A stretch of DNA of 28,874 nt, taken from positions 1 through 28,874 of the forward strand of contig CAJTOR010000005.1 in the NCBI GenBank assembly GCA_910577675.1, read 5' to 3'. Both the position numbers and the translations under genes were made by a program. Origin of the DNA: an uncultured Lachnospiraceae bacterium (GTDB lineage Bacteria; Bacillota; Clostridia; Lachnospirales; Lachnospiraceae). Below are positions 7,913-28,874 of this stretch, one piece after another. Positions within the stretch are counted from its first letter, which is position 1, and each line of letters starts with the position of its first letter. The notes beneath the pieces were generated by a model that was not told the DNA's origin, did no database searches, and saw only the letters and a program-made list of their open reading frames with translations.

Positions 7913-9922
7913 ATGCGGAAGCACAAAAAGGTAGCGGGTATTTCGGCAGCAATGGCAGCAGTGTTTTTTGTAGGTGTATGTTCTGATTTTCGCTTAGGTT
8001 CTGCGGGGAGCGGGAACATGAAAGACGGGACGATCCTCGATATTGCTGCGGCAGGAGCTATTACATATGCGAGCGAAACGGGGGTGCCTGTCGGCAAGTA
8101 CAGGCTTGCAGCGTCGCTTGCAGCTGGGGGCGAACTGTTCCGGGGGATTTATTCCGGCAGCGGGGAATCCCTTTATACAAGTTTGTTTGCGATGCAGGAT
8201 GGTTTGAGAAGCAGTGAGGGAACCAATGGCGATATGCCTGGGAACTCTGGAGAAGGCGAAAACGAAGCCGGGCTGCCGGAAGAGGGGGGAGTGGCACCCG
8301 CTAATGGGTTGGACGGTGACGGGACAATAGCGGGCGATCCTGATAGTGTGGATGGGAGCTCGACAGACGGGGATATGGCACCGGATGGGAACATTCCTTC
8401 TAATGATCCGTCCGATGCCCCGGATGGAACGGGGGAGCCTGGGGATAATACCGATGGGGATGGACAGACACAGGAACCTTTTGTCCCAGTTGATATCTCC
8501 GGCAGTGAGGGTGTGGGTTCCGATGATAATCTTTACCTTCCGGATGAGGGCGAGGGGATTGTTGACGAGGAACCAGCGCCGGAGTTTTACTCCCAGGGAG
8601 TTTCGCACAGTTCGGTTGCGGATATCCAGCAGCGTTTGATGGATCTGGGATTTATGGATTATTCGGAGCCGACGATGTATTATGGTTCCATCACGGCAAA
8701 AGCGGTGGAAATGTTCCAGCGCCAGCACGATTTGAAGCAGGACGGAATTATCGGACCTGAAACGAGAGAATTGCTGTTTTCTGACGATGCGAGGTATTAT
8801 CTTGCAAAGGCGGGGATGGATGGCGATGATATCAAACGCATCCAGCGAAGACTCTATGAGATGGGCTATCTTGCGAAATCCGAGTATGTTACTGGGCACT
8901 TTGGTGATGTTACCGAGGCGGCGGTCAAGCAGATGCAGCAGAACAATGGTCTTGCTGCGGACGGCAAGGTGGGGCATGACACAATGGAAATGCTCTACAG
9001 CGAAACAGCCAGGGCAAATATAGTTTCTTACGGCGATAAGAGTGATGTGGTGCTTGCCTGCCAGGAGCGCCTGAAGGAATTGGGGTATCTCACGACAAAA
9101 CCGGACGGGCAGTACGGCAATGATACGGTTGCGGCAGTCAAACAGTTCCAGTCAAGGAATGACCTTGTGGTGGACGGTTTCTTAGGACCTACAACAATGC
9201 AGGTATTGAACGGTTCCGATGCGGTTGCCAACGGTATGATGATTGGTGAGAGCGGTGATACGGTAAAACGTGTACAGGAGCTTCTTGCAAGATATGGTTA
9301 TATGTCCTCCTCCAACTGTACCGGATATTTCGGTGAGGTGACGGAGGAAGCAGTCAAGGCATTCCAGAAAAAGAACGGTTTGACAGCGGACGGAAATGTC
9401 GGCATGAAGACGATGGCAAAACTGACAAGCGGTGATCCGGTTAAAGCGGGCGCGGGCACGCAGGGAAGCAGCAGTAGTTCTTCCTCCTCATCCTCGAGTA
9501 ATAAGGGCAATTCTTCTTCCAGCTCGGGCAGTTCCTCCTCCGGAAGCGTCAGCACGGGTAGTGCGAGTGTGTCTGCGCTGCTTAAAGTGGCGAAATCAAA
9601 GCTGGGCAAACCATATGTTTACGGTGCGAAGGGACCGAATGCATTTGACTGTTCGGGCTATGTTTACTGGTGCCTGAACCAGGTTGGGATCAAACAGAGC
9701 TATGTGACATCCTACGGATGGCGCACAATCGGAAAATATCAGAAGATAACGAGTTTTTCAAGTATCAAGGCGGGCGATATCGTTGTCGTTAGGGGACATG
9801 TCGGCATTGCGGCGGGAAATGGTATGGTCTATGATGCTTCCTCGAGTAGCGGCAAGATTGTATACCGTTCGCTCGGTTCATGGTGGAAGAATAATTTCAT
9901 TTGCGCTTGGAGGATTTTCTAA
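7913..9922 (+). CDS. Secreted or lipid-anchored cell-wall hydrolase: signal peptide, acidic Gly/Asp/Pro-rich region, five PG_binding_1-like repeats, Ser-rich linker, C-terminal NlpC/P60 endopeptidase domain
   Basis: N-terminal sequence MRKHKKVAGISAAMAAVFFVGVCSD is signal/lipobox-like. The unit ...QQRLxxLGYxxxxDGxxGxxTxxAVKxFQxxNxLxxDGxxG... recurs five times. The C-terminal sequence DCSGYVYWC...GHVGI carries the NlpC/P60 Cys-His catalytic pair. GGAGG RBS present. Confidence 0.88.
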   Translation: MRKHKKVAGISAAMAAVFFVGVCSDFRLGSAGSGNMKDGTILDIAAAGAITYASETGVPVGKYRLAASLAAGGELFRGIYSGSGESLYTSLFAMQDGLRSSEGTNGDMPGNSGEGENEAGLPEEGGVAPANGLDGDGTIAGDPDSVDGSSTDGDMAPDGNIPSNDPSDAPDGTGEPGDNTDGDGQTQEPFVPVDISGSEGVGSDDNLYLPDEGEGIVDEEPAPEFYSQGVSHSSVADIQQRLMDLGFMDYSEPTMYYGSITAKAVEMFQRQHDLKQDGIIGPETRELLFSDDARYYLAKAGMDGDDIKRIQRRLYEMGYLAKSEYVTGHFGDVTEAAVKQMQQNNGLAADGKVGHDTMEMLYSETARANIVSYGDKSDVVLACQERLKELGYLTTKPDGQYGNDTVAAVKQFQSRNDLVVDGFLGPTTMQVLNGSDAVANGMMIGESGDTVKRVQELLARYGYMSSSNCTGYFGEVTEEAVKAFQKKNGLTADGNVGMKTMAKLTSGDPVKAGAGTQGSSSSSSSSSSSNKGNSSSSSGSSSSGSVSTGSASVSALLKVAKSKLGKPYVYGAKGPNAFDCSGYVYWCLNQVGIKQSYVTSYGWRTIGKYQKITSFSSIKAGDIVVVRGHVGIAAGNGMVYDASSSSGKIVYRSLGSWWKNNFICAWRIF

Positions 9923-15953: not shown

Positions 15954-16098
15954 GCGCAAGTCCTGTGCGGAGTATGACGGGGCGCGCTGTGGGCAGGGAA
16001 AGTCTAGCCTGCCTGGTTTTTGCGGTTGCCCGCAGGGCATGTAGGATAGGACATTCGGCAGTAAAAGGCTGTGCAGATAGTAGATGGAGAGGGCGGTT

Positions 16099-16803
16099 AT
16101 GGCGAAAGTATTGTCAAAGGAAGAATGGAAAAAAAGAAAAAAACTCTATGCTTATTTAAAACTTGTGGTTGCAGCCATGCTGGCACTCCTGATTGTGCTT
16201 ATCCTGCTGATTGGCTTGATAAAGGTGGTGAAGAACCTGTTTTCGAAAGGAAGCCCTGAGGCACCAGTCGCGCCTACAATGAAGCAGGAGCTTGACATTA
16301 CGGAACTTTTTCTGACCCCGAATGGTTATACAAGACCGCAGAACCCGCTGAAAGAGGTGAAGGGGATTGTGATCCACTATGTTGCGAATTCCGGCAGCAG
16401 TGCGGTGGAAAACCGGAATTATTACGAGGGATTAAAGAGCAACAGCACCTCAAAAACAGCGGAAAGCTGTCATTTTATTATTGATCTTGACGGCAGCATC
16501 GTGCAGTGTATCCCGCTTGACGAGATCGCCTGCGCTTCCGGTGCGCGCAACGAGGACACAATTGCGATCACCTTTTGCCATCCGCAAATAGACGGGGAAC
16601 CGACGGCGCAGACCTATGATAGTCTTTTGAAACTGACAACCTATCTGTGCACGAAGTACGGGCTGACGAAGGAAGCAGTGATGCGTCATTCCGATCTTGG
16701 CGACCAGTCCTGCCCGAAATATTTTGACGACCAGGAAGGAAAGTGGGCGGCATTTTTGGCAGAACTTGATACGGCGGTGGGCAAGGCGGAAAAGAAGCAG
16801 TAA
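16099..16803 (+). CDS. Membrane-anchored N-acetylmuramoyl-L-alanine amidase (Amidase_2 / PGRP-like domain)
   Basis: N-terminal TM sequence LVVAAMLALLIVLILLIGLI. The catalytic domain has GIVIHYVANSG, CHFIIDLDGSIVQCIPLDEIACASG and the terminal ...HSDLGDQSCP motif typical of zinc amidase_2 enzymes. Start set at MAKVL after a GGAGAGGG RBS. Confidence 0.82.
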   Translation: MAKVLSKEEWKKRKKLYAYLKLVVAAMLALLIVLILLIGLIKVVKNLFSKGSPEAPVAPTMKQELDITELFLTPNGYTRPQNPLKEVKGIVIHYVANSGSSAVENRNYYEGLKSNSTSKTAESCHFIIDLDGSIVQCIPLDEIACASGARNEDTIAITFCHPQIDGEPTAQTYDSLLKLTTYLCTKYGLTKEAVMRHSDLGDQSCPKYFDDQEGKWAAFLAELDTAVGKAEKKQ

Positions 16804-16836: not shown

Positions 16837-17271
16837 ATGGATTACAAATTTTATGGATGGGAGCATGCGGATGCCCCAGCAATTACGGATGAATTCAGCG
16901 GTATCAAAACACCGATTGATCTCTATGATGCACTGTCCGACCTGTGGTGCGGGTATACCTGCGCGCCGAGAATGCGGGGAAATTGGACGAAGGAGAACAA
17001 AACACTCGGGCAGTGCTCAATCACCGCTTTCCTGGCGCAGGATATTTTTGGCGGCAAGGTCTATGGGATTTTGCGGGATGGCGGGAATTACCACTGCTAT
17101 AATGTGGTTTCAGACTGTGTGTTTGACCTTACCAGCGAGCAGTTCGGGAATGAAGTGTTAAACTATACCGATAATCCCGAACAGTTCAGGGAAGTCCATT
17201 TTGCAAAGGAGGAAAAGCGGCAGCGCTACGAATATCTCAGGAATGAACTGAAAAAACGTTTTTCTGTCTAG
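16837..17271 (+). CDS. Hypothetical cytoplasmic protein (possibly YunG-like, a DUF family of unknown function)
   Basis: ORF with GGAGG RBS 9 nt upstream of ATG at 16837. No TM or signal peptide. The family assignment is a recollection only. Confidence 0.55.
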   Translation: MDYKFYGWEHADAPAITDEFSGIKTPIDLYDALSDLWCGYTCAPRMRGNWTKENKTLGQCSITAFLAQDIFGGKVYGILRDGGNYHCYNVVSDCVFDLTSEQFGNEVLNYTDNPEQFREVHFAKEEKRQRYEYLRNELKKRFSV

Positions 17272-17956
17272 CAGCACAAGGAGCAGGTTTGGACAGATGG
17301 TTTTGCAGGTGGGAAAGGACTGCCGCCGCCAATAGCAAAAACAGGATGATCCCCATTCCGCAGCACAGGAAGTACCGCTCCGGCAGAATTGTGATTATAG
17401 GGTCGGTAGCAGCATCAAAAATCCAGTCATTGTTATCAAAAAGGATATGGTGCATCCGGTAGAAAGCGCTGTGGAAATCAAAAAGGAAGAGGAGCAGGCA
17501 GGCAAAGGGGACAATAACACAGAGCCGTGCAGTAAAGTGGAGGGTACGGGAAAATTCGGCAGGAAGGTTAGCGGGGATTTGAAGTCTGCTTTTCAGGCAC
17601 CTCTTGCCCCTTCCCCACACTTTGAGGGCAATGAGCAGAACCCCTGCAAAGAAACAGACCGGAACAGCAAGGGACAGATAGGAAAACAATGTCTTTGTTT
17701 CGGCAAAATGTGACAGCGCGGAGGGCGAGGAAGGAAAATCGGGGAAGGAGAGGCTGCCCCGGTAGAACAGCGAACAGTATTCAATCAGGTGGTCATAGTT
17801 CCTTAAAACCACCTCCTTTGTCAGCCCGCTTTCGGATATAATTTTGAGCGGCTGTGCAAGCAGATGGTAAAACCCCCGGCAGTGGATTATCAAAGTGGTG
17901 CCAAGGCAGACCAGGGCGATAAAAAATAAAAATCCGGAAATAAAAGTAAAGAGCAA
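17237..17956 (-). CDS. Integral membrane protein of unknown function (about five hydrophobic segments), TTG start
   Basis: 239-aa ORF with strongly hydrophobic helices. Only a TTG start is available. A GGGAGG lies 7 nt upstream of it on the minus strand. The 3' end overlaps the upstream convergent gene by 35 nt. Confidence 0.55.
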   Translation of the reverse strand: MLFTFISGFLFFIALVCLGTTLIIHCRGFYHLLAQPLKIISESGLTKEVVLRNYDHLIEYCSLFYRGSLSFPDFPSSPSALSHFAETKTLFSYLSLAVPVCFFAGVLLIALKVWGRGKRCLKSRLQIPANLPAEFSRTLHFTARLCVIVPFACLLLFLFDFHSAFYRMHHILFDNNDWIFDAATDPIITILPERYFLCCGMGIILFLLLAAAVLSHLQNHLSKPAPCAARQKNVFSVHS

Positions 17957-18058: not shown

Positions 18059-20428
18059 TTATGCCCGGATGTCGAACGAGTACCGTTTCATTGATGTGCC
18101 GCCTGTTTCAGGCGATAACATATCGCGCACGGGGTTGGCAGCCCGGTCGCGCTTTTCGATGCGCGCGTCCAGTGTGTAGCCCTTGTTTTTCAGCATGGAA
18201 GCAAAATCCGATATATTCTCCGTGGTAAGCGAGGCGCTGATTGCATCCGGTAGATAAAATCTTGCTGTAACAATTGTTTCGGCAAGCGAGAGGTGGATAT
18301 CCATTGGCCCCATGTGTTCCATATCCAGATGCAACAGTACACTTGGGGCTTTGTTTGCTTTTGCCGCAGTCCGGCGGTTCGTATACACATATAATTCCGC
18401 GTGCGCATTTTTTCCGGAAAGTTTGAGCGGAAGCTGCACATAGGGGAAAAGCTGGTTCAGGGCTTTCATAAAATCGATATTTTCGCGGATCCCTGCGGCT
18501 GTATCCTGGAAAGCGGGTGCGTCCACACTGCGGGACGGGAGCTTTTCGATAAAGGAAAGGTCTTTGTCCAAGCGCTTGTAAAAGTCTGCGACACCATCCT
18601 CTTGCAACAGTGTTTCCGGCTTTAAGGAAAAGCGGTCTTTTAGCATATGCTTTAATATTTTCTGGTAGGATTCGGATGCCAGATAGGAGGATGAAGACGG
18701 GGAATCCCCCTCTTCGTCCTCCGCCTCAAGCAGCAGGGAGAGAAGTTTTTCCACTGTGATATCCCCATCTTCCAGTTCCTTCCTCGCACTTGCTGACAAC
18801 TTGCCTTTTAACAGGTTGGAAAGTTCCAGGCGCTTTGCCTTTGGCAGTATGGCACCCAGTTCGGAACGGTTAAGGCAGAGGGCGGAAAACTGGTTTACCA
18901 GCGAAAATATTTCTGCGGTCTGCAAGGCGGTTGGAAGGAGTGATGCCGCTTCCGGCAAAATGGCAGAGAGCGGGGTGGGTGGTGGAGCCTGCATATTCGT
19001 CGCCTTCGCTACATTGTTTCCGCCAAACAGGTTTCCGGCACTCTGTAAGAGGGAGCGGAAGAGGGAGGCGACAGTGGATGGCTGCGAGGCTTTTCCAGCC
19101 GCATTTTCGGGCGATGCGGTATTTCCGGCAGCCGTTGCATTTTTGGATTTATCCATGACATTCCCAGGGCTTGCGGCAGAATCCTCGTTATTAACGCCTG
19201 CTTTCCCCGCACTTTCAGATATTTCCACTGTGCTACCCGCCGTATTTTCTGCCAGGGTGTTTGGTACATCACTCTTCTGTGCCGCATTTTCGGTGGTATC
19301 AGGCACCATAGTATCGGGGCTGGCTGCATCTGTACCTGGCAAGGTAGGGGCTCCCTCCGTATTATTAACTGTGCCATCCGGGGTTGCAATCCCCCCCATC
19401 TCCGTCTGCCCGCCGGAAGGATTCTGATTCTGCAACAGGTTTTCAGCCAGGGAAAGAATTTGCTGCACCACTTCCCTGAGCGTTGCGGAACCGTTTGCAA
19501 CCGCCGCGCACAATTCGCGGGAAAGTCCTGCCTGCTCGAGAGTATCGGCAAGCGTAAGTGCCTCCTCCTGTGTAAGAAGAGCCAGGGAGGAGAGAGGCAG
19601 GTCTGCGGCAGGAAGATTTGGAAGGGAAGTGCCGCCCGCAATATCTAAAGCAGAGGTATTGATATTGGCTCCATGTGCGGTATCCCCGCCAGAAATATTA
19701 TTGTTGTCAAATAACATATGGAGCAGTTCGCTGTTTAAAACCTCCGCCTCCGCCGCGTTCCCGCCGTTTAACAGGGAGGAGAGCGTGTCCGTAAATTCCC
19801 CTGCGGCGCGCTCTGCAAGCTGCATAATACGGTGTTCGTAATTCAGGTATGAGGTAAGCGCACGGGCGTTTACCTCGTTCACCGGCAAGCCCTGCTTGTG
19901 CAGGATGGCAAGCGTGTGGAACGAGATACCCCGCAGATTTGCAGACTGGCGCAGCATAAGCTGGATGGTGTTCTTATCGACGGAAAGCCCTTCGTCCAGG
20001 AGGGCGCGGACCATTGAAACATTGCGTTCCGAGCGCGGCAGACCTGCCGCGTCAAGCGCCTTGTCAATGGTAAGTTCCGTGGAAGCGGCGCGCGGGTCAG
20101 TCATAAGTTTTAGGGAGACGAGGGAGCCGCTTGCCTCCGTTACGCGGAATGTGGCCTGCTCCCCGATGGCAAGCTGCACGGCATCATCGATATTTCCGGT
20201 AAGGACATGGCTGTCCGGAAGCTGAATTTTAATCTCATGTCCGCGCAGGTCGATAACCTCCCCGCGGACAAACTGCCCCTGTGAGAAATTGACACCCTGT
20301 GCGCGCCCCTGGACCTGCGTGGCGGCAGAAGAATTGCCGCCGCTTGAAACGGCTTTTCCCGTCTTTGAGAAGCGGCCAGAAAGCGGAGTATTGGTTGAAT
20401 TAGTAATGCGTTGATCGTAACCGGGCAT
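18059..20428 (-). CDS. Large low-complexity (Ala/Ser/Thr/Asn/Gly-rich) protein with FliK-like (Flg_hook-type) C-terminal domain; orphan, no flagellar neighbours
   Basis: Start moved to MPGYDQRITN, where an AAAGGA SD lies upstream of the ATG. The ORF-track N-terminal 40 aa lack an RBS. The C-terminal ~90 aa (SVLLHLDMEHMGPMDIHLSLAETIVTARFYLPDAISASLTTENISDFASMLKNKGYTLDARI) follow the alternating hydrophobic pattern of FliK C-terminal domains. The central ~300 aa are low complexity. No signal peptide. Confidence 0.6.
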   Translation of the reverse strand: MPGYDQRITNSTNTPLSGRFSKTGKAVSSGGNSSAATQVQGRAQGVNFSQGQFVRGEVIDLRGHEIKIQLPDSHVLTGNIDDAVQLAIGEQATFRVTEASGSLVSLKLMTDPRAASTELTIDKALDAAGLPRSERNVSMVRALLDEGLSVDKNTIQLMLRQSANLRGISFHTLAILHKQGLPVNEVNARALTSYLNYEHRIMQLAERAAGEFTDTLSSLLNGGNAAEAEVLNSELLHMLFDNNNISGGDTAHGANINTSALDIAGGTSLPNLPAADLPLSSLALLTQEEALTLADTLEQAGLSRELCAAVANGSATLREVVQQILSLAENLLQNQNPSGGQTEMGGIATPDGTVNNTEGAPTLPGTDAASPDTMVPDTTENAAQKSDVPNTLAENTAGSTVEISESAGKAGVNNEDSAASPGNVMDKSKNATAAGNTASPENAAGKASQPSTVASLFRSLLQSAGNLFGGNNVAKATNMQAPPPTPLSAILPEAASLLPTALQTAEIFSLVNQFSALCLNRSELGAILPKAKRLELSNLLKGKLSASARKELEDGDITVEKLLSLLLEAEDEEGDSPSSSSYLASESYQKILKHMLKDRFSLKPETLLQEDGVADFYKRLDKDLSFIEKLPSRSVDAPAFQDTAAGIRENIDFMKALNQLFPYVQLPLKLSGKNAHAELYVYTNRRTAAKANKAPSVLLHLDMEHMGPMDIHLSLAETIVTARFYLPDAISASLTTENISDFASMLKNKGYTLDARIEKRDRAANPVRDMLSPETGGTSMKRYSFDIRA

Positions 20429-20541
20429 GGGGGAATCCTTTCTGTGGTAAATTATAAATAATATATAATTATTTATCGGAAGATTGTGGGGAAAATATAA
20501 GGGAATCCCAAATTCTTTTTTATCCTCTTCCAGCAAGAAGA

Positions 20542-20562
20542 CTCCCACCTCTTAGGTGGGAG
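20542..20562. promoter_or_regulatory. Perfect 9-bp/3-nt-loop hairpin or palindromic operator CTCCCACCT-ctt-AGGTGGGAG in the divergent intergenic region
   Basis: Read directly. Not followed by a T-run on either strand, so more likely a dimeric-regulator site than a terminator. Confidence 0.4.
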
Positions 20563-21624: not shown

Positions 21625-22293
21625 ATGCTGTTGATTCAGAACATTCGACTTAGTTGGGATAAAAATGAGCGCGGGGCAAAAGGTGAGGATGTGCGCCGTT
21701 CATTTCCGCCCGCCTATCCGGTGGGACATCAGCTTTTTGGGGAGGCAGTTGTCCAGAACCTGTACTTTTATCAGGAAGAAGACCGCATAATGGATTATAA
21801 TCAGGCAGAATATTTTTTCATGGAAAAGAGTCTGCCGCGAATCGGGTTTACGAAGGAGCAGGCAGCAGAGGAGGCAAAAAAGCGGATTGAATGGACAAAA
21901 AAGCATCAGTACCAGAGCTATCCTTCCATCGATGCGCTGAATTTGGCGAACCTGTCCGTCTGTGCAAAGGAAAATCAGGTAGAGATCACATTTTTCTATG
22001 ATGAACAGCGCAGCGGCGTGCCCGTCCGCAGAGGACATAACAAGGATTTCCTAAATCCGGACTCAAGGTTTTACCAGAAGGATAATCTGAATGAAACTGC
22101 CTTTATATTAGGAAAAAATCAATATGGGCGGATTATATGGAATGAGAGAAAGGTGGATTACGACCAGGGGACATGGTATTATGAATTCCATATTTATAAT
22201 TTGATTTATTTAACAGAAAATAAATTCCCGGATAATATTTTTCTTCAGACCGAGCCTGATTATATATATCGCCAGCTTGCAAGACTGTATTGA
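21625..22293 (+). CDS. Hypothetical protein (222 aa, soluble, Tyr/Asn/Phe-rich, low GC), no recognisable family
   Basis: GGAGGG RBS 7 nt upstream of ATG. Clean ORF. AT-rich codon usage distinct from the core genes. Confidence 0.6.
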   Translation: MLLIQNIRLSWDKNERGAKGEDVRRSFPPAYPVGHQLFGEAVVQNLYFYQEEDRIMDYNQAEYFFMEKSLPRIGFTKEQAAEEAKKRIEWTKKHQYQSYPSIDALNLANLSVCAKENQVEITFFYDEQRSGVPVRRGHNKDFLNPDSRFYQKDNLNETAFILGKNQYGRIIWNERKVDYDQGTWYYEFHIYNLIYLTENKFPDNIFLQTEPDYIYRQLARLY

Positions 22294-24253: not shown

Positions 24254-25219
24254 ATGAATGCACATATTATAGGAACCGGGAGTTTTCTCCCTGAAAAGGT
24301 AGTTACAAACTTTGATTTAGCAGAGCGGATGGAAACGAATGATGAGTGGATTGTGAGCCGCACGGGTATCCGCCAGAGGCATATTGCAGTGGAGGAAAGT
24401 ACTGCGGGCATGGCGGCGGAGGCTGCGCGGAGGGCTCTTTCCTGCGCGGGAATGACGGCAGGGGAGCTGGAGATGATTCTTTTAGCCACGGTTTCCCCGG
24501 ATCATATTGTGCCAAGTGCAGCCTGTGAGGTACAGGCGATGCTCGGTGCCGTGAATGCGGTGGCAATCGAGCTTAATGCGGCATGTTCGGGATTTGTCTT
24601 CGCGCTGAATACGGCGCAGGCATATATCAGGGCGGGGATTTACTCCAGAATCCTTGTGATTGGAGTGGAAACCCTCTCAAAACTGGTGGACTGGACTGAC
24701 CGTTCCACCTGTATTCTGTTTGGGGACGGGGCGGGTGCAGCGGTGGTGACAGCATCCGAAAACAGGGGGATTCAGGATTTTATACAGTTTTCCGACGGCG
24801 CGAAGGGTGAGGCATTGCTGTGTGATGCGAAGCCGCTGCGCAATTTATTCGCGCACCAGGAACCTGCACAGGAATTTGTGAAGATGGACGGGCAGGAGGT
24901 GTTTAAATTTGCCGTGCGCCGCGTCAGTGAATCGATTGACCAGCTTTTAGAACGAAACGGTCTTACGGCGGGAGATATCGGGTGTTATGTTCTGCATCAG
25001 GCAAATGCCAGGATTATCGCTTCTGTGATAAAGCATCTGAAGGCGGATGCGGATAAATTTCCTATGAATGTGGAGCGCTGCGGCAACACTTCCGGGGCTT
25101 CCGTGCCATTGCTCTTAGATGAGCTTTCCCGCTCCGGCCGCCTGAGGGAGGGTGACCGGGTGATTATGTCCGGCTTTGGCGGGGGGCTGACCTGGGGAAG
25201 CATTTATATGATATGGTAA
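24254..25219 (+). CDS. fabH: 3-oxoacyl-[ACP] synthase III (KAS III); standalone, not in a fab cluster
   Basis: N-terminal sequence MNAHIIGTGSFLPEKVVTNFDLAERMETNDEWIVSRTGIRQRHIA. The catalytic Cys is in ELNAACSGFVFAL. His/Asn motifs: LHQANARI...GNTSGAS. The C-terminal GGGLTWG is typical of FabH. Start chosen at MNAH by homology to FabH N-termini. An alternative ATG lies at 24227. Confidence 0.88.
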   Translation: MNAHIIGTGSFLPEKVVTNFDLAERMETNDEWIVSRTGIRQRHIAVEESTAGMAAEAARRALSCAGMTAGELEMILLATVSPDHIVPSAACEVQAMLGAVNAVAIELNAACSGFVFALNTAQAYIRAGIYSRILVIGVETLSKLVDWTDRSTCILFGDGAGAAVVTASENRGIQDFIQFSDGAKGEALLCDAKPLRNLFAHQEPAQEFVKMDGQEVFKFAVRRVSESIDQLLERNGLTAGDIGCYVLHQANARIIASVIKHLKADADKFPMNVERCGNTSGASVPLLLDELSRSGRLREGDRVIMSGFGGGLTWGSIYMIW

Positions 25220-25276
25220 AAAATTTGTTTTTGGCAGTCTGTCAGGCTTGCAGGGGTATTGTGGGCGGGTATATGG

Positions 25277-25540
25277 TGTAATGTCCTTCGATATTATACC
25301 ATGTCGTTCCAACATGCTAAGCGTATTTATGCGCTTTCCCTGCGGGACGTGCACACGGTTCGCCAAGGAAGATGTCCTCCCTTTGGTCGGACGGCGAACC
25401 GGCGCAAGTATAATATCTTTTGATATATTACCATGTCGTTCCAACATGCTAAGCGCATTTATGCGCTTTCCCTGCGGGGCATGCACAAGATTTGCCAAAG
25501 AAATTATCCGCCTTTTGGTCGCATGGTAAATCAGCGATGA
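25277..25540. repeat. Tandem direct repeat, 2 copies of ~132 bp at ~85% identity (about 25277-25408 and 25409-25540)
   Basis: Units aligned by eye. Both share ...TA(T)TACCATGTCGTTCCAACATGCTAAGCG(T/C)ATTTATGCGCTTTCCCTGCGGG... and a conserved CCAAGG/CCTTTGG hairpin. The period is a multiple of 3. Confidence 0.75.
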
Positions 25541-25726
25541 ATTTTGACCAAAGGGAGAAAATTTTCATCAGTGAATTATATACATTCCCTGGGGGAATAT
25601 GGATGAAGGACATGGTCAAATATAAATAATTTGAGAGATTGGCAGTGGGATGGTATGTATATTTTGTATGCTCCCGAAAAAATCCGGGAAAAAATTTAAA
25701 AATTTTCAAATTGTGCTTGACAATTC

Positions 25727-25756
25727 GGAAAAAAAGGTGCATAATAAATGAGCAAC
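25727..25756 (+). promoter_or_regulatory. Sigma-A promoter for the tRNA operon (-35 TTGACA 25727-25732, -10 TGcATAATA region 25748-25756)
   Basis: Consensus -35 and TG-extended -10 at 17-18-nt spacing, ~55 nt upstream of tRNA-Pro. Confidence 0.55.
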
Positions 25757-25810
25757 GTCACTGATGCGTTCTTTGTCAAATAGAGGGAGGATGCGGGGCA
25801 GTTGTTACTT

Positions 25811-25884
25811 CGAGGCGTGGCTCAGTTTGGTAGAGCGCTGCGTTCGGGACGCAGAGGTCGCAAGTTCGAATCTTGTCGCCTCGA
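25811..25884 (+). tRNA. tRNA-Pro (anticodon CGG)
   Basis: Cloverleaf folded by hand. Acceptor pair CGAGGCG/CGCCTCG, D-arm GCTC-AGTTTGGTA-GAGC, anticodon stem-loop CTGCG-TTCGGGA-CGCAG with G37, T-arm GCAAG-TTCGAAT-CTTGT, discriminator A. CCA not encoded. Confidence 0.9.
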
Positions 25885-25904
25885 TTTTGTGCGAAAGCGC
25901 AAGT

Positions 25905-25977
25905 GCTGGAATAGCTCAGCCGGTAGAGCACTTCACTCGTAATGAAGGGGTCGTCAGTTCAAATCTGATTTCCAGCT
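25905..25977 (+). tRNA. tRNA-Thr (anticodon CGU)
   Basis: Acceptor pair GCTGGAA/TTCCAGC, D-arm GCTC-AGCCGGTA-GAGC, anticodon stem-loop CTTCA-CTCGTAA-TGAAG, T-arm GTCAG-TTCAAAT-CTGAT, discriminator T. CCA not encoded. Confidence 0.9.
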
Positions 25978-25978
25978 T

Positions 25979-26018
25979 ACCGTGTAAAGAATCGTGAGGG
26001 TATCACGGTTCTTTTTTT
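25979..26018 (+). terminator. Intrinsic terminator after the tRNA pair
   Basis: Stem ACCGTG...CACGGT (inner CGTGA-gggta-TCACG) followed by TCTTTTTTTGT. Confidence 0.65.
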
Positions 26019-26252
26019 GTGCATGCGGACGGGGAACAGAATATTCAGCCCGGGTTCGTGCAGACAAATATGCCAAAGAAATAAAATGTTTTAAGACCGC
26101 CCGACAAAAAGGGAGAAGATGCTAGATAGGGTGAGCCCGAAAACTTATTCCCGCCATCTGCGCCCCCTGATTTGATGCGAAATGGCGCAAATTTTGATGC
26201 ACGGGTGATAGAAAGAAATTTTTTGACAATACATACCAGAAGGGGGCTTTGC

Positions 26253-26280
26253 TTGACAGAATAGATAAAAGCGTTATAAT
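26253..26280 (+). promoter_or_regulatory. Sigma-A promoter for the histidine-kinase fusion gene (-35 TTGACA 26253-26258, 16-nt spacer, -10 TATAAT 26275-26280)
   Basis: Consensus hexamers read directly, ~50 nt upstream of the GGAGG RBS/ATG at 26332. Confidence 0.6.
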
Positions 26281-26331
26281 GAAACTATTAAAAACATCAT
26301 CGCTTAACTAAAATTTATGGAGGACTGATTT

Positions 26332-28380
26332 ATGATTTTTACGGAGGAAATTGGGAAAATACTATGGGAGGTTATTATATTTATTACATATATATTGGTT
26401 TGTGGGAGTTTGGTAGAATGGCGCTATTCGAAAAAAACTTGTCTGGTTCTGACAGCAGGTTTAGTGGCAGCCATTTTTTTAGGTCAGGGCTGGCTGTTCT
26501 ATTCAAGTAACAGCATTATGAAAATATTGACAATGCTTCCGGTAACTGCTTACCTGCCAAGCATCATCTATCTGCACCTGATATCGGGTGTGGGTTTTTT
26601 GCAGACCGTGCTTGTCTGGGGAATGGGTCTGCTTGTCTATGATATCCTGAAAATATATTTAAAAATCCTTCTGTGGTCAGTTAAAATAGGGCATGGAGCG
26701 CAGGAGGGCATATTTTATGTTTTGCTTATCACAGCTTGTTTGCTTGTTGGGGCGGGGCTGATGTTATTTTTTGTCCGGAGTTTTCTGCGCAAGCCTTTTC
26801 GGATGTATGTGAAAGGCAGCCGGGCGAGTTGGATGCTGCTTTGTATCCCTGTTTTGGTAATTCTCCTAATGTATTCTTATATCGGTAATAATATTGGGAA
26901 TATACTGATGCAGATCTTTCTTTTTTTGAATGTCCTGGCAATTTTTTTTCTGATTATCAGGTCGCTGATATCTTTTGCATCCATCGAGCGCATGAGGGAA
27001 TCGGAACAGGAAATTGTTGACTATATGCAGGTGCAGCGCAGGGAGTACGAGGATGTATGTGTCAAGATGGAAGCGGGGCGTATCTTCCGCCATGATATGC
27101 GCCACCACCTGCTGGTGCTTGAGAATATGGCGAAGGAGGGTGATACGGGGCGGATTGTAGATTATATTGGAAGTTTGCGCGGGCAGTTATCAAATACGGA
27201 AAGAAAAGTTTATTGTGAGAACCCGATGGTGAATGCAGTGCTTTCAAGCTATGTCCAGAATGCAATGCAGGATTGCGTGATTGATACGGAGATTAATGTA
27301 CCAAAAACAATAGGGTATGATGAGGTGGATATCTGTGCAATTTTGGCAAATACATTGGAAAATGCAAAGAGAGAATGCATGAAGATCAGCGAAGCTGCTA
27401 AGCGCTATATCTGGATAAAGGCGGATTTGATTGAGGAATGGAAGTTTCTGATTACGGTGGAGAATACAAGCAGTGCGCCTGTTGAAATCGGCGAAGATGG
27501 GCTGCCCAAAGCTTCTGTGAAAAAGGGGCATGGGATCGGTTTAAAAAGTGTCAGTGCCGCTGTCAAGAAATATGGTGGGGTATTTCAATGTGGATATCAG
27601 GAAGGGAAATTTTGCTTTAATGCTGTCTTGTTTAGGCCAGCCAAACATGCCCTGCCGGAAAAGAAAAATATACCTGGAAACAGGGAGGGGGAAAATTCTT
27701 CATCCGCAATTTTAGTATCCGCATTTTTTATATTGCTTTCAATCTGTATTGTTTTTCCGCTGGCAAAGATACTGGTGCAGACAAAAGATATGGGAAGCAG
27801 CGAAGTAAGCAGGATTGAGTGGGGGGATTTAAAATTCAGCCTCAATGTGCCGGCGGATCTTGCGGACAGCGTTTATGGTGATATGGCGGAAGGATATATT
27901 GACAAGATGAAGGAAAAATTCCTGTTCTATGCCAGCCAAAAATATAACGGGCATGTGGCGATGGATATAAGCTACAGAATAATACAGGATGATGACCAGT
28001 ATCTTTGTATCTGTTTTGATGCTGTTTTAAATGCTGGCGGTTCAGGTCAGTACAGCCGATATTTTACGGTGGATAAAAGAAGCGGAAAAATACTTGCGCT
28101 TGATGATTTGTATCGTGACGGTTATCTTGAGGTAATCAGCGCTGAAATACTCAGGCAGATGGAGGAACAGGTAAACAGCGGGAAGGCAAATTATTTTATC
28201 CCGGGCGGAATCTGGAGTGAAGATGAGTGTTTTAAAGGAATTACAGAGGATAGGAATTTTTATCTGAATATGGAGAAAGAGCTTGTTATTGTATTTGATG
28301 AATATGAGGTGGCACCGGGAAGTATGGGGATGCCGGAATTTATAATCCCTGAGGAAGTGCTGAGTGAAGTTTTGCGTTAA
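26332..28380 (+). CDS. Fusion protein: AgrC/NatK-type (HPK10, GHKL/HATPase_c_5) membrane sensor histidine kinase with ~7 N-terminal TM helices, plus an extra TM helix and a C-terminal extracytoplasmic DUF4163-DUF3298 (RsiV-like) domain
   Basis: H-box IFRHDMRHHLLVL, N-box ILANTLENAKRE and G2 KKGHGIGLKSV are typical of AgrC-like kinases. A TM helix follows (AILVSAFFILLSICIVFPLAKIL). Then come DUF4163-like (YRIIQDDDQYLCICFDAVLNAGGSGQYSRYFTVDKRSGKILALDDLY) and DUF3298-like (FYLNMEKELVIVFDEYEVAPGSMGMPEFIIPEEVL) signatures. It is one uninterrupted 682-aa ORF with a GGAGG RBS. Confidence 0.8.
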   Translation: MIFTEEIGKILWEVIIFITYILVCGSLVEWRYSKKTCLVLTAGLVAAIFLGQGWLFYSSNSIMKILTMLPVTAYLPSIIYLHLISGVGFLQTVLVWGMGLLVYDILKIYLKILLWSVKIGHGAQEGIFYVLLITACLLVGAGLMLFFVRSFLRKPFRMYVKGSRASWMLLCIPVLVILLMYSYIGNNIGNILMQIFLFLNVLAIFFLIIRSLISFASIERMRESEQEIVDYMQVQRREYEDVCVKMEAGRIFRHDMRHHLLVLENMAKEGDTGRIVDYIGSLRGQLSNTERKVYCENPMVNAVLSSYVQNAMQDCVIDTEINVPKTIGYDEVDICAILANTLENAKRECMKISEAAKRYIWIKADLIEEWKFLITVENTSSAPVEIGEDGLPKASVKKGHGIGLKSVSAAVKKYGGVFQCGYQEGKFCFNAVLFRPAKHALPEKKNIPGNREGENSSSAILVSAFFILLSICIVFPLAKILVQTKDMGSSEVSRIEWGDLKFSLNVPADLADSVYGDMAEGYIDKMKEKFLFYASQKYNGHVAMDISYRIIQDDDQYLCICFDAVLNAGGSGQYSRYFTVDKRSGKILALDDLYRDGYLEVISAEILRQMEEQVNSGKANYFIPGGIWSEDECFKGITEDRNFYLNMEKELVIVFDEYEVAPGSMGMPEFIIPEEVLSEVLR

Positions 28381-28407
28381 GATATGCCAAAATATCTTTA
28401 CATAACG

Positions 28408-28477
28408 GCGGGTGATTGGGTGGTGGGGATAAAGAGTGGGAGATAAGGAAGGGGAGTGGGGAAATGGAGGAGGGGGC
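28408..28477 (+). repeat. Polypurine G-tract-rich segment (GGGTGATTGGGTGGTGGGGATAAAGAGTGGGAGATAAGGAAGGGGAGTGGGGAAATGGAGGAGGGGG)
   Basis: About 70 nt that is >90% purine on the plus strand, with repeated GGGG/GGGAG runs. It lies between the kinase gene and the IS607-like gene. Confidence 0.6.
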
Positions 28478-28568
28478 TATATTCGCATATTTCAAATTTG
28501 GGGAAAAATGTAAAAGCATAAGGAGATAATATTAAGTTATTGAAAATATACACAAATAGGTTTATATA

Positions 28569-28577
28569 TGATATAAT
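28569..28577 (+). promoter_or_regulatory. Extended -10 promoter element (TGaTATAAT) upstream of the IS607-like tnpA
   Basis: Read directly. Followed by an AGGAG RBS 8 nt before the ATG at 28606. Confidence 0.45.
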
Positions 28578-28605
28578 GTGTTTATAAAAGAAAGGAGACA
28601 CTTTT

Positions 28606-28874
28606 ATGAACACGTCAAATATCACAAATTATAAACCAAAGGATTTTGATGAATTATTAGGAGTATCGGTTAAAACTTTGCAACGTTGGGACAGAGATGG
28701 GATATGAAAAGCGAATCGTACTCCTACTGACAGAAGATATTATACTTATGACCAGTATTTACAATTCAAAGGTATAAAAACAAAGAATGATCGAAGAGAT
28801 ATCGTGATTTATGCAAGAGTTTCTACAAGAAATCAAAAAGATGATTTGCAAAATCAAGTGGATTTTTTAAAACA
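28606..28874 (+). mobile_element. tnpA: 5' part of an IS607-family transposase gene (tnpA, serine recombinase with N-terminal MerR-like HTH), interrupted by an in-frame TGA at 28705-28707; truncated by the window end
   Basis: Translation MNTSNITNYKPKDFDELLGVSVKTLQRWDRDGI*KANRTPTDRRYYTYDQYLQFKGIKTKNDRRDIVIYARVSTRNQKDDLQNQVDFLK. The HTH (SVKTLQRWD...RTPxxRRYY) and the catalytic-Ser region (IVIYARVSTRNQKDDLxxQ) are hallmarks of IS607-type TnpA. The reading frame is continuous apart from the single TGA. The gene is very AT-rich relative to the host. Confidence 0.7.

Follow-up and report, generated by a model that had tools for sequence, protein, structure and literature searches.

The DNA analysed here (the window) comprises the first 28,874 nucleotides (nt) of contig CAJTOR010000005.1 of an uncultured Lachnospiraceae bacterium (assembly GCA_910577675.1), and near its 3' end lies a gene for a sensor histidine kinase that continues, beyond its catalytic domain, into an additional transmembrane (TM) helix and an extracytoplasmic domain homologous to the lysozyme receptor RsiV. 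The original prediction had described a single 682-residue open reading frame (ORF) joining an AgrC/NatK-type kinase through an eighth TM helix (TM8) to such a domain, and the ORF does occupy exactly positions 26332 to 28380 of the plus strand. The gene, its expression signals and the parts of its product, with amino acid (aa) positions, are as follows.

26253..26280, plus strand: sigma-70-type promoter of the kinase gene, TTGACA-16 nt-TATAAT, matching the consensus at 12 of 12 positions
26319..26323, plus strand: ribosome-binding site GGAGG, 8 nt 5' of the ATG, read from the sequence
26332..28380, plus strand: whole coding sequence of the histidine kinase and RsiV-like ectodomain fusion, 682 aa, ATG start
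26359..26958, plus strand: N-terminal seven-TM membrane domain, aa 10-209, N-terminus outside (hydropathy and positive-inside charges; helical in the full-length model)
27088..27111, plus strand: H-box RHDMRHHL, aa 253-260, inside the dimerization and histidine phosphotransfer (DHp) helix (aa ~210-290), invariant in 44 homologues
27322..27621, plus strand: catalytic ATP-binding domain HATPase_c_5, aa 331-430, with N-box N340/N344 and G-box G401/G403 (Pfam, alignment)
27634..27705, plus strand: disordered cytoplasmic linker, aa 435-458, not an anti-sigma domain (model confidence, conservation 0.24, position outside the RsiV profile alignment)
27706..27762, plus strand: TM8, aa 459-477, running from inside to outside (hydropathy; helix 455-484 in the model)
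27763..27819, plus strand: degenerate juxtamembrane segment, aa 478-496, AKILVQTKDMGSSEVSRIE, with the AXA site and amphipathic helix absent, of which many relatives have the former and a subset the latter
27820..28377, plus strand: extracytoplasmic RsiV-type receptor domain, aa 497-682, a DUF4163-like beta-grasp part plus DUF3298 (Pfam, NCBIfam, phmmer, Foldseek)
28102..28350, plus strand: DUF3298 part of the ectodomain, aa 591-673 (Pfam)

The domain at aa 497-682 is related to RsiV both by sequence and by predicted fold. Pfam places DUF3298 (PF11738) at aa 591-673 (E 1.8e-15, 58.1 bits against a cut-off of 24.1), and the NCBIfam RsiV equivalog profile NF052658 aligns aa 535-681 with its positions 133-280 of 286 (E 2e-42) at 145 bits, which is below its equivalog cut-off of 250. 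The best PDB match by sequence is 5jen_A, RsiV bound to lysozyme (phmmer, E 7.8e-23), and the identity of the ectodomain to RsiV amounts to 30-33%. An AlphaFold model of aa 482-682, with a predicted local distance difference test score (pLDDT) of 83 and a predicted template modelling score (pTM) of 0.78, finds RsiV 5jen_C as its top PDB match in Foldseek (E 8.9e-15, 201 aligned columns, 31% identity), and the match extends over both sub-domains. The comparison with the RsiV-lysozyme structure thus bears out the likeness that had been proposed for this part of the protein. Ranking after 5JEN are 3CYG, 4E72, 3S5T and 2HHI, the same entries that Hastie et al. 2016 list as structural relatives of RsiV (PMC5014341). 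As for the claim that the C-terminus carries both DUF4163 and DUF3298, the latter stands, and the two-lobed fold is recovered against 5jen_C, but Pfam DUF4163 (PF13739, PdaC) has no match in the window protein even at E<=1 and matches just 2 of 44 relatives, weakly.

Stand-alone relatives of the ectodomain, found in a profile search of representatives at 50% identity, are proteins of 280-325 aa that align from TM8 onward. Five of six that were tested exceed the NF052658 cut-off (280-293 bits against 250), and because these nearest stand-alone relatives pass the RsiV cut-off, the C-terminal module has a specific kinship with true RsiV, beyond a general likeness to DUF3298 proteins. Long members of the fusion family (750-870 aa) contain a low-complexity Ser/Thr/Pro/Glu-rich insert in the ectodomain loop that leads from the first beta-strand, which bears the invariant WGD...P motif, to the first long helix; no such insert occurs in the window protein.

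The N-terminal part is a seven-TM GHKL kinase, as had been proposed. Pfam recognizes HATPase_c_5 (PF14501) at aa 331-430 (E 4.7e-15, 55.8 bits against a cut-off of 22), and the H-box at 253-260, which follows the RHDxxxHL pattern, N340/N344 and H400-G401-I402-G403 are invariant or nearly so in the 44 homologues. The kinase core (aa 210-453) matched no PDB sequence at E<=1, and the assignment to the AgrC type therefore rests on the Pfam match and on the pairing with LytTR regulators described below. Hydropathy resolves seven TM segments within aa 10-209, with loops of at most 18 aa except for one of ~24 aa and no large periplasmic loop, and then, after a cytoplasmic kinase core of 250 aa, the lone TM helix at 459-477. 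The loop charges are consistent, by the positive-inside rule, with a protein whose N-terminus and C-terminal domain are outside and whose kinase core is inside. Because the ATP-binding domain must be cytoplasmic and is followed by one TM helix, the C-terminal domain must lie outside the cell, in agreement with the topology originally put forward.

The short segment before TM8 had been judged not to be an anti-sigma domain, and this is borne out: it consists of 24 aa, is disordered (pLDDT <50 at aa 438-456 in the full-length AlphaFold model) and lies outside the RsiV profile alignment. The full-length model has a pTM of 0.44, with low confidence in TM8 and the linker. Across the family, the mean frequency of the most common residue is 0.67 in the ectodomain, 0.62 in the DHp and catalytic domains and 0.55 in TM1-7, where TM3 (0.71) and TM6 (0.66) are best conserved, and it is 0.39 in TM8 and 0.24 in the linker. 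The ectodomain is thus the region of highest conservation in the fusion family and the linker that of the lowest.

This architecture is widespread. A protein-cluster search covering 5.8 billion clusters returned 201 relatives, at least 120 clusters at 90% identity were examined, and the fusion was found in at least 120 such clusters. All those listed carry both PF14501 and PF11738, have lengths of 675-870 aa and identities of 33-53%, and, where named at all, are called "GHKL domain-containing protein". A scan of GTDB with one genome per species returned 504 relatives, the best 80 loci of which (74 non-redundant) were examined; roughly 75 of these 80 contain the full-length fusion, which is present in over 70 GTDB species. 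Among 1.84 billion representatives at 50% identity, searched exhaustively with a profile, about 45-50 were full-length fusions, followed in rank by kinases of 420-450 aa that match the N-terminal two thirds and by the 280-325-aa proteins. The carriers belong to the Lachnospiraceae, Oscillospiraceae, Ruminococcaceae and other Clostridia, represented by gut metagenome-assembled genomes (MAGs) of mouse, chicken, rabbit and human, with one Gordonibacter and one Selenomonadales record as outlying labels; one carrier is cultured, Faecalicatena orotica DSM 1287 (locus L053). Two paralogues of the fusion occur together in several genomes, for instance in the single MAGs holding L024/L031, L052/L054, L039/L057 and L027/L073, and such pairs often differ in juxtamembrane subtype and in whether the regulator lies upstream or downstream. 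Searches of the literature for DUF3298, DUF4163 or RsiV with histidine kinases, and for lysozyme with LytTR, found no description of the fusion. The statement that the architecture is undescribed thus stands as regards publications, but the fusion is already widespread in the databases, albeit under generic names only.

Could the ORF be an artefact of assembly or a frameshift that joins a kinase gene to a separate rsiV-like gene? In a few related loci (L060, L066, L074, L081) the gene is split into two ORFs, a weak hint in this direction. Against it, the same continuous ORF is found in independent ENA, NCBI, JGI and Logan assemblies of many species, and hundreds of separately made assemblies contain the fusion, at 27-53% identity. 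Furthermore, what precedes TM8 is the 24-aa linker and not an anti-sigma domain of ~35 aa plus intergenic space, and the RsiV profile alignment starts at or after the TM helix, never at the sigma-binding domain. The conservation of the fusion across assemblies and species refutes the artefact, whose probability we regard as practically nil, in line with the earlier view that a merged gene pair was improbable.

RsiV is cleaved by signal peptidase between residues 66 and 67 (Lewerke et al. 2018, PMC6066255), and its residues 67-86 form amphipathic helices that hide the cleavage site until lysozyme binds; its TM helix together with these helices constitutes DUF4179 (PMC6066255). The common reading of the fusion family just outside TM8, found in many members, is NC(M)P-x-x-A-Q-A-L-x-x-(I/V)-P-(V/G)-L-G-x-(L/V)-V-R. 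An AXA-like motif occurs in most loci and the helix motif in 28 of 74. A fusion without the long insert, P0092, aligns continuously with the RsiV crystal construct from P61 to the C-terminus (HMMER), placing PALADA/LEDAPVLGMIV over PDAAQA/MSKIPVIGKIV of RsiV across the 66/67 site; the numbering of the RsiV chain was checked against K137, H139, S169, P259 and Y261. The NF052658 alignment starts at profile position 27 in P0092, compared with 133 in the window protein. This homology was detected only with the juxtamembrane fragment joined to the ectodomain of a member without the long insert; a 71-aa juxtamembrane fragment of P0010 alone gave no meaningful match against the PDB. Pfam DUF4179 matches 9 of 44 family members, weakly, and a genuine sigV-linked RsiV at locus L074 shows the same juxtamembrane motif, AVNASPDAAALLADIPVLGQVVRIF. 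Judged from these alignments, the RsiV homology of many members reaches the membrane and includes the putative signal-peptidase AXA site, and in a subset it also includes the predicted amphipathic switch helix.

A second large subgroup (L022-L024, L027, L033-L036, L052, L054, L057, L062, L079 and others) reads LPSAAEAAS-x-LLSVNIRTIR outside TM8, keeping the AXA-like motif but not the PVLG helix. The window protein has lost both: its juxtamembrane sequence CIVFPLAKILVQTKDMGSSE contains no P-x-x-A-x-A and no (I/V)P(V/G)LG motif, and its closest relatives P0003 and P0005 resemble it in having neither (window segment CIVFPLAKILVQTKDMGSSEVSRIEWGD). The original prediction had been silent on the RsiV site-1 motif of many members, on the switch helix of the subset and on the loss of both here.

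A LytTR response-regulator gene is the immediate neighbour of the fused kinase in about 53 of the 74 non-redundant loci. In most cases it lies downstream, on the kinase strand, and begins either in an overlap with the kinase stop codon or no more than ~40 nt from it; sometimes it is directly upstream. Because of this adjacency, the fusion family as a whole is a normal two-component pair with an unusual sensor. The earlier observation that no cognate regulator is encoded nearby is thus correct for the window, where none lies in the 26 kb upstream of the kinase, but does not hold for the family. Sigma-factor domains were absent from the window ORFs scanned, and there is no adjacent sigV (ECF30); AgrB/AgrD or ComC-type peptide genes were not apparent among the recurrent neighbour clusters, in which small ORFs were not searched systematically. 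The recurrent neighbours in the 74 loci are chemoreceptors, ABC exporters, OmpR-type regulators, bactofilins, a GH2 enzyme and unknown large proteins. Genes for methyl-accepting chemotaxis proteins (dCache, HAMP, MCPsignal) adjoin the kinase-regulator pair in nine related loci (e.g., L039:2996-4969), and in other loci large proteins without Pfam matches (841-1451 aa) or small ORFs of 90-140 aa lie directly 3' of the regulator gene. At L074:12320-13761, a genuine extracytoplasmic function sigma gene and an RsiV gene (289 bits, above the cut-off) lie 4.8 kb downstream of the fused kinase, whose gene appears in this assembly as two separate ORFs; since this genome holds both the sigV-rsiV pair and the fusion, the two RsiV-module systems can coexist.

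The window kinase shares its sub-branch with L009, which is 99% identical to it, and with L001 and L010-L013, at 52-53% identity; L002 and L003 are duplicate contigs of L001. Members of this sub-branch never have an adjacent regulator; they have instead a conserved gene 3' of the kinase, whose product of ~250 aa comprises a basic N-terminal segment, two TM helices and a soluble domain of ~165 aa and is 55-57% identical in L001 and L010-L013. Its soluble domain has invariant CYITE, YRxCGGY and YDLL motifs (L009:2207-2968, L001:10068-10823, L010-L013). A Pfam scan of this protein found no family, and the idea that it is a hidden LytTR regulator was rejected, as hhalign against 15 family regulators gave a probability of 0.2% and Pfam gave no match. 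The window protein is a derived member of the family, without an adjacent regulator, without the switch helix and with a 250-aa membrane-protein partner gene. The features flanking the kinase gene in the window are the following.

25810..25977, plus strand: tRNA-Pro(cgg) and tRNA-Thr(cgt), directly 5' of the kinase, a conserved syntenic landmark and not an island boundary
28520..28548, plus strand: remnant ribosome-binding site and start region of the downstream 250-aa membrane-protein gene, where the homology to L009 ends
28549..28874, plus strand: start of an inserted element that runs off the window, with an IS607-type serine recombinase gene

The window can be matched to the uninterrupted allele L009 as far as ~28527-28548, where the ribosome-binding site and start codon of the 250-aa gene lie, and foreign sequence follows. 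The IS607-type serine recombinase gene (MerR helix-turn-helix and Resolvase N-terminus) starts at 28607 and has an in-frame TGA at 28706-28708, which was replaced by L for the Pfam scan; this points to a pseudogene or else to an error in the sequence. The element inserted later and has parted the kinase from its 250-aa partner gene in this strain, and since the otherwise 99%-identical L009 is without it, the insertion is polymorphic in the population.

The promoter and ribosome-binding site of the kinase gene both lie downstream of the terminator (25986-26014) that ends the tRNA pair; an Rfam scan of 24900-28874 found the two tRNAs and nothing else. The gene order in L010 and L011 is that of the window, namely a 222-aa ORF, GalT, FabH, tRNA-Pro(cgg), tRNA-Thr(cgt), the kinase and the 250-aa gene, and because it is shared although the kinases are only ~52% identical, the location of the kinase is old. 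This conserved synteny and the conserved tRNA pair rule out a genomic island, and the proposal that the gene had originated in a low-GC island beside tRNA genes and an insertion sequence (IS) element has to be dropped, the element being a later arrival. The GC content is 0.42 in the kinase gene against 0.48 in the window; the TM-rich part has the lowest value (0.40), as expected from hydrophobic codon usage, and the ectodomain is low too (0.42).

Some further observations concern the surroundings of the gene. The 222-aa ORF (21625-22293) has no Pfam match and is conserved at the corresponding place in the gene order of L010 and L011. A unit of ~130 nt stands in two tandem copies, 81-84% identical, at 25276-25536 between fabH and the tRNA genes; its 3' half contains an inverted repeat, GGTTCGCC...GGCGAACC, without an Rfam match, and the unit recurs in the opposite orientation in related Lachnospiraceae (L013:10106-10173, L001:16334-16398, L009:3023-3106). 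Possible identities are a dispersed repeat and a small structured RNA. Other envelope genes of the window lie at 7913-9922, 16084-16803, 17237-17956 (minus strand) and 18059-20548 (minus strand). The envelope proteins encoded there are a cell-wall hydrolase with four PG_binding_1 domains and NlpC/P60, an Amidase_2 N-acetylmuramoyl-L-alanine amidase, a Lit lipoprotein transacylase and an 829-aa protein with a FliK-type Flg_hook domain. The GroEL of the window shows 100% identity to MAG proteins that occur on 708 contigs.

Whether the ectodomain has kept the ability to bind lysozyme was approached through the 15 lysozyme-contact positions of RsiV in Table 2 of PMC5014341, which were mapped onto the family alignment. 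Five to six of these are identical in the fusion, namely S169, Y255, E256, P259 and G260, together with H139 in the window protein. S169 corresponds to S571 within an invariant N-x-G-G-S loop, Y255 to Y658 and G260 to G663 (both invariant), E256 to E659 and P259 to P662; H139 corresponds to H541, which is H in the window protein only and Y in the rest of the family. S169 and P259 are, with Y261, critical contact residues of RsiV (PMC5014341). The contact-equivalent positions are enriched for conservation, 8 of 15 being at least 90% conserved in the family compared with 48 of 186 in the whole ectodomain (Fisher p = 0.017), and it follows that the same saddle, equivalent to that of RsiV though not identical with it, is probably the functional surface. 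That the ligand is lysozyme or a lysozyme-like muramidase has, on this comparison of residues, roughly even odds.

The reading that we favour, with a probability of roughly 0.55, is that the window gene encodes a real and intact sensor kinase of an apparently undescribed family of gut Clostridia, whose ectodomain likely senses c-type lysozyme or a related muramidase and feeds a LytTR output. The RsiV-like ectodomain would be the ligand-binding module, its most likely ligand would be such an enzyme met in the gut, and occupancy outside the cell would change the kinase output toward the LytTR regulator. Several results weigh against this. RsiV Y261 contacts the catalytic E35 of lysozyme, and the window protein has S there; in all, 9-10 of the 15 contacts differ (K137N, E163V, T165N, Q166A, A167G, S168G, T171Q, D225W, Y261S). 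Rv1980c, which has the same fold, does not bind lysozyme (PMC5014341). Genes for peptidoglycan deacetylase, OatA or dlt are not recurrent among the neighbours of the 74 loci, which vary and include chemoreceptors, ABC exporters and large surface proteins. In the window itself, no response regulator accompanies the kinase, the downstream side is interrupted, the 250-aa partner gene is displaced by the insertion, and neither the AXA nor the helix motif is present. In the full-length model, TM8 is not placed with confidence relative to the seven-TM bundle, and the poor conservation of TM8 speaks against a sequence-specific contact between the two.

Some of these points would suit a domain that has been retuned to another ligand, such as a fragment of peptidoglycan, a muramidase from bacteria or phages, some other secreted protein or a protein partner in the cell's own envelope, making the kinase an envelope or cell-wall sensor and not a sensor of host lysozyme. 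Such a retuning is possible but less probable. The contact positions that differ make up ~60% of the total, N567, G569, G570 and W628 are invariant as non-RsiV residues and the Y261 equivalent is mostly S, suggesting a conserved but altered surface, and no lysozyme-resistance genes recur in the neighbourhoods. DUF4163/DUF3298 proteins do not all bind lysozyme (PMC5014341), and at L074, where sigV-rsiV lies beside the fusion, a second lysozyme sensor could be redundant. What holds us to lysozyme or a related muramidase is that the nearest stand-alone relatives are bona fide RsiV equivalogs and not generic DUF3298 proteins, that both RsiV loops entering the lysozyme active site keep S169 and Y255-E256-x-x-P259-G260, and that the carriers are almost all gut bacteria. 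It is distinctly unlikely that the window copy is a decaying orphan which no longer signals, having lost its regulator and switch segment and been cut off from its partner by the IS element. The missing regulator, the degenerate juxtamembrane motif and the insertion at 28527-28548, at the start of the downstream gene, would fit such decay, as would the 3 nonsynonymous and 3 synonymous codon changes relative to L009, although six codon differences are too few for an estimate of selection by dN/dS. Yet the ORF is full-length with all catalytic motifs intact, its promoter is perfect and a ribosome-binding site is present, and the regulator-less arrangement with the 250-aa partner is kept in five further Lachnospiraceae loci (L001, L010-L013). 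Because it is conserved in loci whose kinases are 52-53% and partners 55-57% identical, the regulator-less state is old and maintained.

If the ectodomain does sense a ligand, the linker presumably cannot carry a mechanical signal to the catalytic domain, because it is disordered, variable in length and unconserved, and two routes come into consideration. The signal might travel sideways in the membrane, with TM8 and the juxtamembrane segment acting on the conserved seven-TM bundle. Alternatively, ligand binding might trigger an RsiV-style cut at the AXA site and then a site-2 cut in TM8, so that the catalytic domain would be set free or become unstable. The second route is the favoured one for the main branch, because TM8 is poorly conserved and the AXA site and gate helix are kept; for the window branch a non-proteolytic mode is favoured, because both motifs are lost. 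The window copy may thus be coupled conformationally to an unlinked regulator, possibly with involvement of the 250-aa membrane partner. A bolder version, which we hold to be doubtful, is that in the main branch the whole RsiV switch, comprising the TM helix, AXA site, amphipathic gate helix and lysozyme receptor, has been transplanted onto a kinase, so that lysozyme-triggered intramembrane proteolysis and not allostery would control it. Cleavage by signal peptidase and then at site 2 would irreversibly untether the catalytic domain or expose a degron, and the window branch would be a later, non-proteolytic derivative with the 250-aa partner.

Lysozyme is a major host defence in the gut, and RsiV is, to our knowledge, the sole bacterial receptor dedicated to lysozyme that has been characterised. 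In many commensal Clostridia (Lachnospiraceae, Oscillospiraceae, Ruminococcaceae) an RsiV-type receptor module is joined to a different output, an AgrC-type kinase with a LytTR regulator. What appears to be new here is the combination and topology, without a published description that we could find, of a known receptor module and a known kinase class. If functional, the fusion would give abundant gut commensals a new way to sense host innate immunity, and its sensor domain, placed behind the catalytic one, would make it a kinase of rare topology; it could also be the first histidine kinase gated by signal-peptidase and site-2 proteolysis. As a cultured carrier exists in F. orotica DSM 1287, a direct test is feasible. 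The window copy is atypical and derived, and the family is of more interest than this locus.

Compared with RsiV of B. subtilis, of C. difficile and of E. faecalis (5JEN), the fusion likewise has a single-pass TM segment with the C-terminus outside and a two-lobed ectodomain of DUF4163-like and DUF3298 parts, for which RsiV is the best PDB match by sequence and fold, and it conserves the S169 loop and the YExxPG loop. Many members, but not the window protein, share with RsiV the AXA site, and a subset also shares the cleavage-gating amphipathic segment (DUF4179). Unlike RsiV, the fusion has no cytoplasmic sigma-V-binding domain, its place N-terminal to the TM helix being taken by a seven-TM histidine kinase; the partner is not an adjacent sigV but a LytTR regulator or, in the window branch, the 250-aa membrane protein; and ~60% of the lysozyme-contact residues differ, including Y261, with an equivalog score of 145 against the required 250 bits. 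The window protein is thus not an RsiV, but by its homology it contains an apparently RsiV-derived receptor module.

With AgrC/ComD/VirS-type (HPK10, HATPase_c_5) kinases the fusion shares a polytopic N-terminal domain of 6-7 TM helices joined directly to the DHp domain, the RHDxxxHL H-box, the HATPase_c_5 catalytic domain and, in most members, the adjacent LytTR gene. Its closest non-fused relatives are AgrC-type kinases of 420-450 aa (485-490 aa in three scanned loci). Classical members of this type end at the catalytic domain, whereas the fusion continues into an extra TM helix and an extracytoplasmic domain of ~190 aa; also unlike them, no AgrB/AgrD-like peptide genes were noticed beside the family, small ORFs having been left out of any systematic search. 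The window protein fits the HPK10/HATPase_c_5 class, save for the adjacent regulator that is missing at its locus. BceS with BceAB and LiaS with LiaF are kinases that sense through an accessory membrane protein. The fusion would be conceptually like them, in that a membrane-anchored ligand module would talk to the kinase within the membrane; there is no sequence relationship to these systems, and unlike in either of them the receptor is covalently fused to the C-terminus of the kinase.

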